From the IMG/VR virus record IMGVR_UViG_2778261544_000009: a DNA stretch of 35,624 nucleotides. One strand, 5' to 3'. This DNA is from a virus. Its lineage: Duplodnaviria > Heunggongvirae > Uroviricota > Caudoviricetes. Both the position numbers and the translations under genes were made by a program. Each line of letters starts with the position of its first letter. Positions within the stretch are counted from its first letter, which is position 1. Below are positions 28,675-35,624 of this stretch, one piece after another. The notes beneath the pieces were generated by a model. The model worked only from the letters and a program-made list of their open reading frames with translations, searched no databases and was not told where the DNA came from.

Positions 28675-29670
28675 ATGTTTCATGTGGATAATCCGACGGG
28701 TGTACCGGTAATGCCACCTGTCGCGGCTGAATACAGTAAAACAACGCTTTATTTCACTGAAGGCGGGAACGGTATTCCGCCCACTTATCCGGGGCCGGAC
28801 TGGTTTAATATCATGCAGTCCGAAATGCTGGAAATTCTCCGGCAGGCAAATATCAAACCGGACAAAAACACGACCAACCAGATTATGACGGCGCTGAAAA
28901 AGCTGTTTATCACGAACAGTGGTTCAGCCGGAGCTATTGCCGGATTAACCGGTCAGAATAATACATTCCCGTATTTTACCGGCGAAGACACAATGGCATT
29001 AACGCCGCTCAGTGCTTTTGTGCGCAGTATTCTCGGGAAAACCACAGCCAGCGAATTTATTAAAGCAATTGGCCTGTCACCGGACACCCTTTTATCAAAA
29101 GGACGGGTGACAGCATTAAGCGGCACAGCACAGGGACATGCAGGGCTGCAGATGTATGAAGCGTACAACAACGGCTACCCCACCACTTATGGCAATGTTC
29201 TGCACCTGAAAGGCGCGACAGCATCAGGCGAAGGTGAACTGCTGATTGGCTGGAGTGGTACGAGTGGAGCGCATGCCCCTGTTTATATCCGTTCAAGACG
29301 TGATTCTGCAGATGCCAGCTGGTCCGAATGGGCACAGGTGTATACATCAAAAGACAGCTTCAACGCAGCAACCGCCACCAAACTACAAACCGCCCGCAGG
29401 ATTAACAATGTGCTGTTTGATGGCACCAGCGATATCACCATCAGCAGCACCGATTCCGGCGCTGTGCGTGATTTCAGATACACCAGCGAAGTGTTTCACA
29501 ATCCTGGTGGTAACGAAATTTCCTGGGTATTCCGTGCGCCTTCAGGTTGTATTTTGTCAGGTATTAACGTTCAGGATACTGGCAGAAGTTCTGCGGATAA
29601 CATCGGCGGCGTGTATTACAAACAAACTCAGATTTATATCAATGGTGGATGGCGCACGGTATCCGGCTAA
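28675..29670 (+). CDS. Tail fiber protein (first fiber)
   Basis: 331 aa; N-terminus MFHVDNPTGVPVMPP...GIPPTYPGPDWFN resembles conserved tail-fiber N-termini; followed by a fiber assembly gene. Confidence 0.7.
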   Translation: MFHVDNPTGVPVMPPVAAEYSKTTLYFTEGGNGIPPTYPGPDWFNIMQSEMLEILRQANIKPDKNTTNQIMTALKKLFITNSGSAGAIAGLTGQNNTFPYFTGEDTMALTPLSAFVRSILGKTTASEFIKAIGLSPDTLLSKGRVTALSGTAQGHAGLQMYEAYNNGYPTTYGNVLHLKGATASGEGELLIGWSGTSGAHAPVYIRSRRDSADASWSEWAQVYTSKDSFNAATATKLQTARRINNVLFDGTSDITISSTDSGAVRDFRYTSEVFHNPGGNEISWVFRAPSGCILSGINVQDTGRSSADNIGGVYYKQTQIYINGGWRTVSG

Positions 29671-29684
29671 TTAAGGAGAAAATA

Positions 29685-30215
29685 ATGGAACTCAGAAACG
29701 TCACGCGTTATTACCCGGAAGAGATGCCTTATGGTGAAAACATTCAGTATTTCCGCAGTGAAGACGGACAGGATTTTTATGAATCACTGGATAAATTCAC
29801 GAAGAAATACAAATTGTGTATTCACCCTGAAAGCGGCGTGATTTATTCAATGGCGGAAGACGTGTCCCGTCTTTATCCGGCTGGCTTCACCATTGTGGAA
29901 GTGGATGAACTGCCGGAAGGTTTTGGCATTGAAGCCAGCTGGTATTACAAAGACGGCGAAGTGCTGCCGGTTCCTGTTGATTACTCGCGACTGGCAGAAA
30001 AAAAACGCCAGAGCCTGCTGAATGAAGCGAAGGACATCACCTCCGACTGGAAAACCGAGCTGGAGCTGGGCACCATCAGCGACGATGATAAAGCCCGTCT
30101 TACGCAGTGGATGGCATATATCAAAGCGGTAAAGGCACTGGATTTAAGCACCGTTACTGACGAAGCCTCCTTTTACTCCATCAACTGGCCGGAGCGTCCC
30201 GATGCCGCAGCTTAA
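29685..30215 (+). CDS. Tail fiber assembly protein (Tfa/U-like)
   Basis: AAGGAG RBS then ATG at 29685; ends ...INWPERPDAAA, typical of Tfa chaperones. Confidence 0.7.
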   Translation: MELRNVTRYYPEEMPYGENIQYFRSEDGQDFYESLDKFTKKYKLCIHPESGVIYSMAEDVSRLYPAGFTIVEVDELPEGFGIEASWYYKDGEVLPVPVDYSRLAEKKRQSLLNEAKDITSDWKTELELGTISDDDKARLTQWMAYIKAVKALDLSTVTDEASFYSINWPERPDAAA

Positions 30216-33200
30216 AGGTGTGATTAAAACGCCCACGGGAGAACCGCTGGGCGGCGCAACAATTACACTGACCTCCCTGCACAACCGTGCAGGGATTCTG
30301 AAAAGTGTTTTCAGCCATGTCACCACACAGAGCGGGGAGTACGACTTCCCCGTTCTGCCGGGTGTGTACAGCGTTCGCCTGACACAAAGCACACAGCGCC
30401 TTTCAGAAATCGGTGTCATCCGCGTTTATGAGGATTCAGCGGACGGTTCGCTGAATGATTTTCTGGGCGCAACCGATATTGACCTGCGCCCGGAAGCCCT
30501 GAAGAAATTCGAGGAACTGGCGCAACAGGCGCAGCAAAGCGCAGAAAAAGCAGGAGAGCACGCCACCGCTGCTGAACAGGCCCGCCAGGATACAGAAACG
30601 CTCGCCTGGGAAATACAGCAGGATGCAGAAGAAATTGCGGGTAATGTGCAGAAAGCTGAAGAGCTGGCCTCTGAAACAAACCAGAATGCCGCCCGCGCAG
30701 AGCAGGCTGTCAAGGATGCTGACGCGATAGTCCAGAAAGCGGTCGATAAACTTGCTGATGCTGCAACGCTGACCGGCGAGGCAAAAGCCAGCGCCGAAGC
30801 GGCAGCAAAAAGCGAACAGAACTCGAAACAGCACAGGGACGAGGCGCAACGGATAGTTGATGACCTGAAGGGAAGCAATGCCTCCACGACGGAAAAAGGC
30901 CTGGTGCAACTCTGTAGTGATACAGACAACGACAGCGAAGAACTGGCAGCCACACCAAAGGCTGTCAAAACCGTCATGGACGAGACGAAAACAAAAGCTC
31001 CACTGGACAGCCCGGTGTTCACCGGCACGCCAACCACACCAACCCCACCGGATGATGCAGTCGGTCTGGAAACCGCGAACGCGGCATTTGTTCGCAAACT
31101 GCTCGCCGCACTGGTTGACTCGTCACCGGAAGCCCTGGACACACTGAATGAGCTGGCAGCGGCGCTGGGCAATGACCCGGAGTTCGCGACAACAATCATG
31201 AACGCGCTGGCGGGTAAACAACCACTCAGTGACGTGTTAACCGCAATCAGTAATCTGGAAGAACGGGCAGATAATCTTCTGTGCTTTAATCAGGACGGGA
31301 ATGCTTCACTGTCTCCGCTGTCAGAAAAAGCCCGGTCACTGCTGGCACAGGCCACAGTGGAAGCCATGCGCAATGAGCTTGAGCTGAAAAGCGCGGCGGT
31401 AAAGGACATTCAGACAGACCTTTACGACAGCTCGGAAGGCCGTGTTGCGCTGCCTGGTGCATTTGGTTACGGAATGACGGACGCCGGAGCGCGTTCAATT
31501 ATTGCCAGCGATATGGCGACTGTAGCCAGAACTGCGCACAACCTGCACCCGGGACGGTATTACACCTTTTCCACACAAACGGAAGAGACGACCGGAATAA
31601 CAGAAATTATCTGGCTGGATAATGGCTGGGGCGACAAAACAAGCCAGACAGCAACAAAGCTGGTTCTGTTTTTTGGAAAAGACGGACGGATTCTTATGAC
31701 CGTTCGTGGCGATAATATCTCCGCCCCGGTCACCTGGACGAATCTGACGCTACAACTGGGCAATGCAGCACAGAAGGATGCACAGGAGAATATTTACGAC
31801 CGCACCGAAGGCCGTCTGGCGATTCCCGGCATGTTTGGATTCGGGAAAGTATTTTCCAGCGGCGACAGGACCGAATTTAAAACAGAGGCCGATTTTCTCC
31901 GCTGGGTAAAAACAGCAAAACCCGGTCGTTATGTCGTTTATGGCGCAGATAAAGTGATTCCCGGAGTCCTGTTCAGCGGCACCGTTGAAATTATCTGGCC
32001 GGAACCTCAAACCAACTCCAATCCGGTATATGTGGCCAAAATCATTATTTTTTACGGTATTAACGGCCATATTTATTACAATCGCTACTGGACTACCGGA
32101 GATGGTTATCTGGTTGGCTGGGAAAACCTGAAAGTCAACGAGGCTTCACTCCGGGCACTGATTGAAACCCGCGCGCCACTGAACAGCCCGGCACTGACCG
32201 GAACGCCGTCCACGCCAACACCACCAGATGATGCAGCAGGTAATGAAATAGCCAATGCGGAGTTTGTCCGCAAACTGCTTGCCGCGCTGGTTGGCTCATC
32301 ACCGGAAGCCCTGGACACGCTGAACGAACTGGCGGCGGCACTGGGCAATGACCCGAACTTTGCGACAACAGTCACTAATGCACTGGCAGGTAAACAGCCG
32401 CTTAATGACGTGTTAACGGCTGTCAGCCAGATAACACCGGAAGAAAACACACTGCCTTATTTCAGTGAAGAGGGCCGGATTTTACTGGCGCAGCTGTCAG
32501 AAAAAGCCCGCGCATTACTGGCACTGGACACACCTGAGGCCATGCGCACGGAGCTTGAACTGAAAGCGGCTGCGACGATGGAGCCCCAGAGCGATATCCG
32601 CGACCGCACACCAGGCAGACTGGCACTGTCCGGCATGTACGGATTCGGTCAGGCATTTGCCAGCACCGACGCCCTGACATTTACCGGACAGGCTGATTTT
32701 GCTGAATGGCTGAAAGAGGCCACCCCGGGGCGTTATGCGGTCAGTATTGCGGACTCTTCCACGCTGCTGGCTGGCACCACGAAATTTAACGGCATCATTG
32801 ATGTGATGTGGTCGCCCTTTGATAACGATGAATCGGACACAACGCGTAAATTCAAAACGTTGCTGTGTTTTAACCAGTATTACGAAGGCGAACACAGCAT
32901 TCATCGCCTGACTTACCGCTGGAGTGGAAACAACTGGAATGCAACAGTAAGCCCTGTCATTTACGACGGCGATTCGCTGGCGTTCTTACTCTCCCGGACA
33001 GCAGGCTCAGGCTCATATTACAAATATCCGGCAGTTGGTGTGCCGGTTATGGCGGCATATCAGGGGGAAAGTTTTGGTGCTGATGTGTCTCTGGGACTCG
33101 GTGATATTGTGCCGGGTTCCCGTCTTGGCCCTCTGGCTATGAGTGCTTCAGTTAGCGATACAGGGACATACGTATCCACACCGCAAGTGGCAATTGGTGG

Positions 33201-33306
33201 TGCCAGTGCATACAACTTTCCCGGTCGTTATATGGCGCTTTCGGGGTCACGCAGTAATCACGATACAAAACGTGGCTATATTGGTCTTTTTGTGCGTATC
33301 GAGTAA
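30202..33306 (+). CDS. Side tail fiber protein (lambda Stf / P2 H-like), 1034 aa with internal repeats
   Basis: N-terminus GVYSVRLTQ...IRVYEDSADGSLNDFLGA matches the Stf-family N-domain; two copies of the LAATPKAVK...APLxSPxxTGTPTTPTPPDD...LVDSSPEALDTLNELAAALGNDP collar repeat; three GRLAxPGxFGFG...PGRY tip-like modules. Confidence 0.85.
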   Translation: MPQLKGVIKTPTGEPLGGATITLTSLHNRAGILKSVFSHVTTQSGEYDFPVLPGVYSVRLTQSTQRLSEIGVIRVYEDSADGSLNDFLGATDIDLRPEALKKFEELAQQAQQSAEKAGEHATAAEQARQDTETLAWEIQQDAEEIAGNVQKAEELASETNQNAARAEQAVKDADAIVQKAVDKLADAATLTGEAKASAEAAAKSEQNSKQHRDEAQRIVDDLKGSNASTTEKGLVQLCSDTDNDSEELAATPKAVKTVMDETKTKAPLDSPVFTGTPTTPTPPDDAVGLETANAAFVRKLLAALVDSSPEALDTLNELAAALGNDPEFATTIMNALAGKQPLSDVLTAISNLEERADNLLCFNQDGNASLSPLSEKARSLLAQATVEAMRNELELKSAAVKDIQTDLYDSSEGRVALPGAFGYGMTDAGARSIIASDMATVARTAHNLHPGRYYTFSTQTEETTGITEIIWLDNGWGDKTSQTATKLVLFFGKDGRILMTVRGDNISAPVTWTNLTLQLGNAAQKDAQENIYDRTEGRLAIPGMFGFGKVFSSGDRTEFKTEADFLRWVKTAKPGRYVVYGADKVIPGVLFSGTVEIIWPEPQTNSNPVYVAKIIIFYGINGHIYYNRYWTTGDGYLVGWENLKVNEASLRALIETRAPLNSPALTGTPSTPTPPDDAAGNEIANAEFVRKLLAALVGSSPEALDTLNELAAALGNDPNFATTVTNALAGKQPLNDVLTAVSQITPEENTLPYFSEEGRILLAQLSEKARALLALDTPEAMRTELELKAAATMEPQSDIRDRTPGRLALSGMYGFGQAFASTDALTFTGQADFAEWLKEATPGRYAVSIADSSTLLAGTTKFNGIIDVMWSPFDNDESDTTRKFKTLLCFNQYYEGEHSIHRLTYRWSGNNWNATVSPVIYDGDSLAFLLSRTAGSGSYYKYPAVGVPVMAAYQGESFGADVSLGLGDIVPGSRLGPLAMSASVSDTGTYVSTPQVAIGGASAYNFPGRYMALSGSRSNHDTKRGYIGLFVRIE

Positions 33307-33320
33307 CGGGGAAATAAGAC

Positions 33321-33896
33321 ATGAAAATCAGAGCGATAAAAGGCATCAGAAATGCCCATTATCTCGAAAATGGTGCGGTTGACTGCGAGGTGTTATTTGA
33401 AGGTGAAACGGAATTCGTCCCGTATACCGCCATGCAGGATGATACCGCAATGACAGGCCAGCGCATCTGGGAAGAGTTACAGAGCGGCAAATGGGGTGAA
33501 ATCGCCCCGTTTACAGTCACGCCTGAACTTATCGCAGCGGCAAAAGATGCCAAAAAGATGGAAATCGAGGCGTGGCGCACAGAACAGGAGGCGCAGCCGT
33601 TCACGTTCGAATGGAACGGCCGCCCTTGGAATGCTGGCCCCGACTCACTGGCCCGTCTTTATCCGGTAGTAATGGCGGCGAAATCCGATACGGCAAGAAC
33701 CGCCCTTGCGTGGGGTGACGCCAATAATCAACAGGTGAAACTGTCAATGTCGGAACTGGAAGAACTGGCGGTAGCAATGGCGCAGGCGCAGCTCGATCGC
33801 AATGACGGGATTTATCAGCGCCAGCGTGAAATGAAGGAGCAGCTTTCCCGGCTGTCCATACTGGACGAGGTGAGAGCGTTAACTGTCGGTGATTAA
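33321..33896 (+). CDS. Putative tail fiber assembly/chaperone protein (second)
   Basis: 191-aa ORF immediately downstream of the large fiber gene. Confidence 0.55.
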   Translation: MKIRAIKGIRNAHYLENGAVDCEVLFEGETEFVPYTAMQDDTAMTGQRIWEELQSGKWGEIAPFTVTPELIAAAKDAKKMEIEAWRTEQEAQPFTFEWNGRPWNAGPDSLARLYPVVMAAKSDTARTALAWGDANNQQVKLSMSELEELAVAMAQAQLDRNDGIYQRQREMKEQLSRLSILDEVRALTVGD

Positions 33897-34019
33897 ATAA
33901 TCAGTTTGTATAGTTTATGACGATCGATAACATCATATCGATCGTCGGTTTGCATCGGTTGTGATTAAATACCCCCAGCCCTCCGGGCGGTCATGTCTGG
34001 TTATTACACAGGGGGAATC
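33897..34019. promoter_or_regulatory. mom-operon regulatory region with GATC-containing inverted repeat
   Basis: Perfect 11-bp inverted repeat GACGATCGATA-N6-TATCGATCGTC at 33919-33946 carrying two GATC sites; CCCCC...GGGGG elements nearer the com start. Confidence 0.6.
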
Positions 34020-34205
34020 ATGGACTCTGTTCGCTGTAAAAACTGCAATAAATTACTGTTTAAAGGAGGTTTTAAGCATATAGAAATTAAATGCCCTCGC
34101 TGTAAACGTTACATTGTCATATCGAATGCCAAAGAGCATCCCACGGAGCTGTATTGTGGGAAAAGAGAAGAAATCACGCATTCTGACAAAACCCTGCGTT
34201 ATTGA
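34020..34205 (+). CDS. com: Com zinc-finger translational activator of mom
   Basis: 61 aa, CKNCNKLLF...CPRCKR zinc finger ending ...[10 protein letters not shown]; AGGGGGA RBS. An alternative ATG lies at 33993. Confidence 0.85.
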
Positions 34206-34851
34206 GTATGAAGGCCGGATTGTCGGCTATGGTTCAAAGGAGCTGCGCGTTGAAACCATATCCTGCTGGCTGGCCCGCACAATCATTCAGACAAAACACT
34301 ATTCCCGCCGTTTTGTGAATAACTCCTACCTGCATTTGGGCGTATTCAGCGGACGTGATCTGGTTGGTGTTCTTCAGTGGGGATATGCCCTTAACCCCAG
34401 CTCAGGGCGTCGTGTTGTGCTGGAAACGGATAACCGGGGCTATATGGAACTGAACCGCATGTGGCTACACGACGACATGCCCCGCAATTCTGAATCACGG
34501 GCCATCAGCTACGCGCTGAAAACCATCAGGTTACTGTACCCGTCAGTGGAGTGGGTTCAGTCCTTTGCAGACGAACGCTGCGGACGTGCTGGCATGGTAT
34601 ATCAGGCGTCGAATTTTGATTTTATAGGCAGCCACGAAAGCACGTTCTACGAACTGGACGGCGAGTGGTATCACGAGATAACGATGAACGCGATTAAGCG
34701 CGGAGGACAACGAGGCGAGTATTTACGGGCTAATAAGGAGCGGGCCGTGGTACACAAATTTAATCAGTATCGCTACATCAGATTCCTGAACAAGCGCGCA
34801 AAAAAGCGCCTAAACACTAAGCTATTCAGGGTTCAGCCATACCCGAAGTGA
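34126..34851 (+). CDS. mom: Mom DNA-modification protein
   Basis: Overlaps the 3' end of com, as in Mu. Start uncertain: TTG at 34114, ATG at 34126, or GTG at 34156. Confidence 0.8.
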
Positions 34852-34871
34852 TCCCACTTAATGAATAAAAA

Positions 34872-34896
34872 AGCAGCGGTAAATGCCGCTGTTTTA
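34872..34896 (+). terminator. Terminator-like hairpin after mom
   Basis: Stem CAGCGG / loop TAAATG / CCGCTG followed by TTTTAT. Confidence 0.5.
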
Positions 34897-34976
34897 TCTT
34901 GAATAACTTCCATATGCGCGCTTCTGGCTTATCTTGAAAGAATTCCATATCTATCTTGAATAATTTTGCGCGCTTT
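34891..34976. repeat. Right-end (attR) terminal repeats, putative transposase binding sites
   Basis: Three direct copies of ATCTTGAA(T/A)A at 34895, 34930 and 34953; GCGCGCTT at 34915 and 34969. The phage sequence ends ...TTTTGCGCGCTTT(A) against host DNA. Confidence 0.6.
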
Positions 34977-35624
34977 AGTTTCTCTGGCGCGCTCCGTAAA
35001 CCCCGGGAACAGAGGCAGCTTGATTTCCCGACACATCTGAATGGCAAAGTGTTCTGCCATCAGCATAATGTCGCTTTCGCGCTCGCGCAGGGGCGGCAGT
35101 TGCACTACATCGAAAGCCAGCCGGTCGAGCAGGTCAGCGCGAAAATTACCTTCATTGACCATCGCCGGGAGATCGGCATTCGTCGCGCATACCAACCGCA
35201 CATTCACCTGCAATGGCTGGCTGCCGCCAACGCGCTCCAGTTCACCGTACTCAATCACACGCAATAATTTCTCCTGCACCATCATCGGTGCCGTAGCGAG
35301 TTCATCAAGAAATAGCGTACCGCCGTCGGCACGTTCAAATCTCCCTGGATGACGTTTTTGCGCACCGGTAAACGCGCCCGCTTCGTGACCAAACAGTTCG
35401 GAATCCAGCAGATTTTCATTTAACGCCGCGCAGTTAAGGGAAATAAACGGCCCCTGCCAACGGGAGGAGAGATAATGCAGACGGCTGGCAATCAGCTCTT
35501 TACCTGTGCCGCGCTCGCCGATGATGAGCACCGGTTTGTCCAGCGGTGCGAGATGCGAAACCTGTTCCAGCACTTCGAGAAAGCTGTTCGCCTCACCGAG
35601 TAAATTATCTTTGTATTCTGCCAT
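34977..35624 (-). pseudogene. pspF: Host pspF (sigma-54 activator of the phage-shock operon), 3' end truncated by the prophage
   Basis: The N-terminal ~216 aa (MAEYKDNLLGEANSFLEVLEQ...GERGTGKE...GFTERARET) match my recollection of E. coli PspF; after ERARET the frame runs 15 codons into phage DNA to a stop at 34929. Confidence 0.85.

Follow-up and report, generated by a model that had tools for sequence, protein, structure and literature searches.

Knob-like domains of phage and pyocin fibres are built of five or six antiparallel strands arranged in a sheet, plus loops and a short helix, and they often occur as tandem duplicates, after which a distinct lectin-like domain ends the fibre (Buth et al. 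2018, PMC6116203). The proteins of R2 pyocin (6cl6), phi11 (5efv), phage K (5m9f), T4 (gp34) and AS12 (6eu4) were grouped as Knob-like in the same study, in which saccharide binding by these domains was argued to be possible and their double hydrophobic core was proposed to help the trimer to fold. For the fibres of the Alteromonas phages V22 and A5, a shoulder-stem-neck-knob(s)-head plan has been described, in which the knob of A5 is duplicated relative to V22; the tail-fibre chaperones of these phages are DUF4376 proteins, and the chaperone "cap" is encoded downstream of the fibre (Gonzalez-Serrano et al. 2023, PMC10579305). Here we analyze the gene of a 1,034-amino-acid (aa) tail fibre encoded in the IMG/VR virus record IMGVR_UViG_2778261544_000009, whose whole length of 35,624 nucleotides (nt) is referred to as the window. 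An original prediction, made from the sequence, had placed three tandem tip-like domains in this fibre. According to their predicted structures, the three modules (A, B, and C) are instead Knob-like shaft domains located upstream of a separate, true tip, so that the fibre has one tip and three knobs.

From the N-terminus, the order of the fibre is anchor, coiled coil, first collar with its linker (K1), modules A and B, second collar with its linker (K2), module C, and the C-terminal domain or tip (T); the coordinates are compiled in Table 1. Whole-protein self-BLASTP gave the identity match only, and segment-wise self-BLASTP was used instead, with which we obtained identities of 33% between A and B (E 1.6e-14), 45% between B and C (E 3e-22), and 28-40% between A and C (E 2e-7 to 7e-21). 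The local alignment scores of the module pairs lie 15.8-31.4 standard deviations (SD) above those of 500 shuffles, and comparisons of the modules with the C-terminal 108 aa or with the coiled coil remain at chance level (z <= 1.8). A hidden Markov model (HMM) of the three modules, run on the six-frame translation of the window, found exactly three copies, which correspond to A, B, and C and measure ~125-135 aa each. The predicted presence of three paralogous modules is thereby confirmed, and so is the motif proposed for them, since the invariant columns of their alignment include D..GR.A..G..G.G, PGRY, G, and W. A linker had been expected before every module; it precedes A and C, as part of a collar and linker, but not B, which begins ~10 residues after A.

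Two collar copies of ~85 aa and ~80% identity had also been proposed. The repeat is real but longer, of ~135-143 aa, with aa 263-405 aligning to aa 655-797 (nt 30988-31416 vs 32164-32592) at 66% amino acid identity; at the DNA level, the copies are 72% identical over 429 nt and ~78% identical in the first 270 nt. Their differences are distributed over the three codon positions as 25/30/64, with nonsynonymous (dN) and synonymous (dS) divergences of 0.23 and 0.82. Because the copies of collar and module have diverged and are under purifying selection, they are neither low-complexity stretches nor the product of an assembly that duplicated identical DNA. We give no credence to such an artefact, considering that identities are 28-45% among the modules, that alignment scores are 16-31 SD above shuffles, that the collars differ at the protein and DNA levels as just described, and that the same architecture is found in complete genomes and, with the same length and at 80% identity or more, in over 110 separate 90%-identity clusters from E. 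coli, E. marmotae, and Salmonella.

Table 1. Features of the fibre region, in window coordinates.
Feature	Residues (aa)	Position (nt)	Strand	Basis or remark
First fibre pair		28675-30215	+	Upstream context, outside the repeats
Mu-S-like fibre	331 in total	28675-29670	+	phrog_1833 tail fibre, E 4e-113
Caudo_TAP assembly protein		29649-30215	+	PF02413/phrog_136; belongs with the 331-aa fibre
Second fibre gene	1,034 in total	30202-33306	+	Open reading frame (ORF); matches to PHROG tail fibre families
N-terminal virion-attachment domain, lambda-Stf type	1-92	30202-30477	+	PF08400 phage_tail_N
Ala/Glu/Gln-rich stretch	93-227	30478-30882	+	Composition; aligns with the helical part of 7kjk
Phage tail fibre repeat	228-267	30883-31002	+	PF03406, 56.2 bits vs cut-off 22
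Collar and linker K1	263-397	30988-31392	+	Self-BLAST, alignment
Knob module A	398-521	31393-31764	+	Module HMM, independent E-value 3e-53
Knob module B	522-650	31765-32151	+	Module HMM
Collar and linker K2	651-789	32152-32568	+	Alignment; linker LPYFSEEG...LSEKARALLA
Knob module C, tip-adjacent	790-926	32569-32979	+	Module HMM
C-terminal domain T	925-1034	32974-33303	+	Unrelated to the modules; terminal in most family members
DUF4376 protein, probable fibre chaperone or transient tip cap	191 in total	33321-33896	+	PF14301, 59.3 bits vs cut-off 25

The fold of the modules was approached by structure prediction, with an alignment supplied by a profile search of a 5.8-billion-sequence collection with the three-module alignment, which retrieved short partial proteins. 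In the AlphaFold monomer models, B and C each have one helix and then 5-6 strands, with predicted local distance difference test (pLDDT) values of 84-91 in the core, and the module models reach a pLDDT of 79. In these models, the sheet and the helix-bearing loop by which a knob is recognized are present, and the predicted modules are structurally similar to the reference knobs of R2 pyocin, phi11, phage K, T4 gp34, and AS12; the structural neighbours of module C are this same set, that is, knob domains and not heads. The modules show neither homology nor likeness in fold to known tip domains such as the lectin-like head or the T4 gp37 needle. At the sequence level, A, B, and C have no match in Pfam (to E <= 10), NCBIfam, or the PDB, nothing meaningful was found on K or T in Pfam (E <= 10) or NCBIfam, and PDB searches with the protein and with a C+T profile returned matches only on the anchor, the fibre repeat, and the collar motif.

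The position of the modules leads to the same reading as their predicted fold. They lie inside the protein, and in ~85 representative relatives a module is followed by T, by K, or by another module; proteins ending with a module are found only among truncated entries, so the identity of the modules as terminal tips or heads was discarded. With a knob fold in the predicted models, an internal position, an unrelated and variable C-terminal domain, and unrelated distal ends in other fibres, the proposal of three tips is left unsupported, and the term "tip-like" does not describe what is predicted to be a shaft knob.

The architectures of the family come from an exhaustive search of 1.84e9 representative proteins with the module HMM, which matches ~100 of these 1.84 billion proteins, 78 of them at E <= 1e-10. 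Three proteins carry three copies of the module, ~14 carry two, and the rest only one. When the N anchor (N), collar (K), module (M), and tip (T) were mapped on the representatives, the basic form was N-coil-[K]-M-T, with M-M-T, M-K-M-T, and K-M-M-K-M-T as variants. Each module was also classed according to which of A, B, and C it matches best, and the three types differ in what follows them: of 8 A-type modules, 7 have a further module behind them and none adjoins the tip, all 9 C-type modules are followed by the tip, and the B-type, which is the generic form, stands 34 times before the tip, 19 times before a collar, and twice before a module. Fibres with P2-H-type anchors (PF12571), whose distal part is Peptidase_S74 or Gp34_trimer, carry the same module close to their proximal end; the presence of the module in fibres with such different distal ends indicates a reusable building block of the shaft.

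A protein identical to the fibre exists in NCBI (P0049) as "prophage tail fiber N-terminal domain-containing protein". Matches to the fibre, at least partial, were found in 380 of 5,426 complete E. coli genomes and in 13 of 50,697 phage records, Rac-SA53 among the latter. The module family, with ~100 clusters restricted to Enterobacteriaceae and outside Pfam and NCBIfam, could be defined as a new family of knob domains. Many fibre homologues (among P0001-P0168) are named "shikimate transporter" in NCBI/nr, an evident case of propagated annotation error. In addition, four proteins, P0243 (2,321 aa), P0247, P0251, and P0261, have 8-11 weak, partial matches each to the module HMM; the matches in very long proteins cover the sheet core (profile positions ~54-125) with E from 1e-11 to 1e-4, and, judging by these alignments, such proteins may consist of many remotely related knobs in a long row.

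Variability along the fibre was measured as entropy in 115 close full-length homologues, and divergence in eight three-knob genes. T is the most variable region (0.69 bit) and has the highest dS (1.17). The loops of knob B (aa 580-636) come next, with 0.57 bit and peaks up to 1.1 bit, and the K2 linker is also variable. A and K1 are nearly invariant, A being the most conserved knob (entropy 0.20), and in each module the N-terminal motif hardly varies. Synonymous divergence is lowest in the centre of the fibre and rises outwards, with a dS of 0.14 in K1 and 0.16 in A, 0.45 in both B and K2, 0.96 in C, and 0.83 in the N anchor. In every region of the fibre, dN/dS is 0.10-0.37, which corresponds to purifying selection. 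In a coarse test for diversifying selection, the hot spots of B and T gave dN/dS of 0.23-0.26 with high dS, so diversifying selection is not supported there; since the variable regions are also those of high dS, their variability reflects mosaic exchange of segments and not demonstrable positive selection.

These data bear on the possibility that each module is an independent receptor-binding domain, by which one fibre would recognize several receptors and reach a broader host range. The variable loops of B in close relatives would favour such a role, but their dN/dS of 0.26 with high dS is that of segment exchange. Moreover, the modules are never terminal, the A-type never adjoins the tip, A is highly conserved in prophages whose tips differ, the same module is shared by fibres with unrelated distal ends, and a distinct and more variable tip with its own chaperone is present. 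We therefore consider independent binding by each module unlikely. T, in turn, is the true distal end of the fibre and probably its primary receptor-binding domain, a role suggested by its position, its variability, and the adjacent chaperone gene.

The knobs could also be purely architectural, serving as length spacers and as nuclei for trimer folding that make no contact with the cell, in which case fibres with one and three knobs would differ only in reach. The double hydrophobic core proposed to aid trimer folding (Buth et al., PMC6116203), the strong purifying selection in all regions, the almost invariant N-terminal motif of the modules, and the natural occurrence of 749-aa and 1,034-aa variants in similar Mu-like prophages are in line with such a function. 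A strictly structural role, however, leaves the concentration of variability in the predicted loops of B unexplained, and it is a sub-case of the explanation that we prefer, from which sequence data do not separate it; taken by itself, we regard it as very unlikely.

The explanation that we prefer, and that we consider probable, is that the protein is a long accessory fibre of a Mu-like prophage, made of anchor, coil, K1, A-B, K2, C, and an unrelated T, which became a mosaic by recombination, with the knobs in the shaft and T as the main determinant of specificity. The fibre would be a homotrimer anchored on the virion by its PF08400 domain. By analogy with solved fibres, each knob would be a small domain of helix and antiparallel sheet, packed with three-fold symmetry around the fibre axis, and the knobs would set the register of the trimer, assist its folding, and add length to the fibre. 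T would provide the main receptor specificity, and the DUF4376 protein would fold or cap T. The knobs, most plausibly B, might add weak secondary contacts with saccharides, a role in receptor contact that would be compatible with the argument of Buth et al. on sugars.

Some considerations weigh against this explanation. T has no match in fold (Foldseek gave none at E <= 0.001) nor in the Pfam, NCBIfam, and PDB sequence searches. The loops of B are nearly as variable as T, and among knob-like domains there is at least one solved example that binds sugars, so that a role beyond structure is possible for the knobs. The literature searched yields no experiment on this fibre family, and searches on StfR/Rac and on engineered Stf chimeras gave nothing specific to modules A-C. 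A further proposal, which we find improbable, is that the three knobs are secondary binding sites in series along the fibre, which would read several surface glycans (O-antigen, capsule, core). Host range or the depth of adsorption, and not fibre length alone, would then be tuned as K-knob cassettes are gained or lost, the one-knob and three-knob fibres of otherwise similar Mu-like prophages being examples.

Regarding the origin of the present architecture, the sole collars of the homologues P0180, P0173, and P0200 match K2 at 91-98% identity, against ~70% between K2 and K1. The greater closeness of K2 to the collars of other fibres indicates that a cassette was captured, and in-place tandem duplication was rejected as the origin of the K2-C segment on the same comparison. 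The original prediction of old duplication or module capture is in agreement with this result and with the age of the divergence. In other fibres, K1-like and K2-like collars are found in either position, and the layouts of relatives include K-C-T (P0180), N-K-C-T (P0178, 662 aa), and N-A-B-T (P0177, 571 aa). The Mu-like prophage of E. coli 06-00048, which is related to that of the window, carries a one-knob fibre of 749 aa with the order N-coil-K-C-T, whose anchor and tip are of the same type and whose collar is a K1/K2 hybrid. Megablast comparisons place mosaic boundaries at nt 481, 2396, and 2837/2864 of the gene. From these alignments, the fibre is best read as a proximal N-coil-K-A-B part joined to a K-C-T cassette that circulates on its own, by recombination and not by recent duplication in place, and exchange has been most frequent at the ends. 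The likely site of recombination would be the conserved collar.

The proximal part of the fibre has clearer relatives than the modules. The PF08400 match covers aa 4-130 with 92.2 bits (gathering cut-off 26.6), and the N-terminal region matches the PDB sequences 7kjk, "Collar spike protein" (E 1.6e-10), and 9e7m, "Tail fiber protein" (E 3.6e-9). The stretch of aa 93-227 would form a trimeric coiled-coil shaft, and the PF03406 repeat that follows also aligns to residues 99-154 of the Mu fibre S (5yvq/8ju3). K1 contains the motif ALVDSSPEALDTLNELAAALGNDP, which matches PDB 9d93, "Tail collar fibers gp4", and the linker LLCFNQDG...LSPLSEKARSLLA. The LLCFNQDG of this linker has a counterpart in a strand, LLCFNQ, close to where knob C ends (31276-31293 vs 32860-32877; aa 359-364 and 887-892), and it is also similar to the VLFFGKDG with which knob A closes (aa 359-400 vs 488-526); the comparison of aa 350-386 with aa 878-916 gives BLASTP E 0.009-0.017. 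Judging by this resemblance, the collar linker may be a vestige of the last strands of a knob. The related motif of K2, LPYF..G....L...AR.LLA, is also found in the upstream 331-aa fibre (FPYFTGEDTMALTPLSAFVRSILG).

The window is filled by an almost complete Mu-like prophage, in which Pfam recognizes a CI-type repressor, MuA, MuB, tail sheath, DNA circularisation protein, Baseplate_J, Mu gp48, Com, and Mom. Its fibre region consists of two fibre/chaperone pairs, both on the + strand, and between 28675 and 34851 the two complete pairs stand in tandem (S-like fibre with Caudo_TAP, then Stf-like fibre with DUF4376), followed by com and mom. The DUF4376 ORF starts 15 nt past the stop codon of the 1,034-aa fibre; com and mom lie directly 3' of it, and no ORF of at least 60 aa was found in between among the ORFs of the window. 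A DUF4376 gene is located 3' of the fibre in every related locus examined whose downstream annotation carries a family name. The same four-gene fibre cassette is present in the Mu-like prophages ETEC1732 (in flhA) and 06-00048, and it also ends prophages of the Rac-SA53 type, where it adjoins uspF (loci L001 and L003). A lambda-Stf-type anchor is here combined with a contractile tail of the Mu type. Across the coiled-coil segment of the fibre gene runs an antisense ORF of 257 aa (30426-31199, - strand); judging by its Ser/Ala-rich translation, it seems to be a side effect of the Ala/Glu-rich composition in the sense frame and no real gene.

The prophage is inserted within pspF, and a truncated pspF adjoins its right end (34929-35624, - strand). 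The pspF frame is normal up to ...FTERARET and continues with 15 codons of prophage DNA; the junction is at ~34975-34982 (region 34850-34982). Just inside the prophage end, three motifs of the CTTGAA(T/A)A.. type (~34899, 34933, 34955) resemble the end repeats to which the transposase binds.

Knobs in tandem, the duplication of knobs, chaperones of the DUF4376 type, and mosaic fibres have all been described, and there is no new mechanism here; the new part is limited to a family of knob sequences outside Pfam and NCBIfam and to its clear domain grammar. For the common and poorly annotated prophage fibres of E. coli and Salmonella, our results provide domain boundaries and a grammar of anchor, coil, [K], knob(s), tip, and DUF4376 chaperone. 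The conserved collar, as the likely place of cassette exchange, is useful for the engineering of chimeric fibres, and for retargeting, the segment to swap is aa 925-1034 and not the repeats. The practical value is modest. We regard the protein as a tail fibre of the ordinary mosaic kind, from a Mu-like prophage of E. coli.

Among known systems, the fibres of the Pseudomonas R1 and R2 pyocins (6cl6, 6cu2; Buth et al. 2018, PMC6116203) have tandem Knob1/Knob2 domains. The modules of the window have no detectable sequence similarity to them and are larger (~125-135 aa vs ~83 aa); there are three knobs instead, two of them adjacent and one beyond a second collar, on a lambda-Stf-type anchor. T4 gp34 (5nxh/5nxf) also has repeated globular domains, but it is a proximal half-fibre that lacks a receptor-binding tip, and no sequence similarity to modules A-C was found. 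With respect to phage Mu, whose S/S' fibres are encoded on the invertible G segment, both fibre pairs of the window lie on the + strand, and neither a G segment with inverted alternative fibre ends nor a gin invertase was found in 28675-34851. The Alteromonas A5 and V22 fibres share the layout, with a DUF4376 gene immediately 3' of the window fibre; the hosts are different, the likeness observed is one of layout, and the window fibre has three knobs and a duplicated neck/collar. Lambda Stf and its homologues in E. coli prophages share the PF08400 anchor, the coiled coil, and the Phage_fiber_2 repeat. The window fibre differs from lambda Stf in belonging to a Mu-like prophage with a contractile tail, where it lies downstream of a Mu-S-like fibre, and in having a DUF4376 gene at its 3' side and not Caudo_TAP (Tfa, PF02413), whose sole gene is located upstream. 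The tail3 protein of Rac-SA53 (KU052037, 1,061 aa) carries the same three modules, and its gene is 87.8% identical over nt 481-2396 of the fibre gene.

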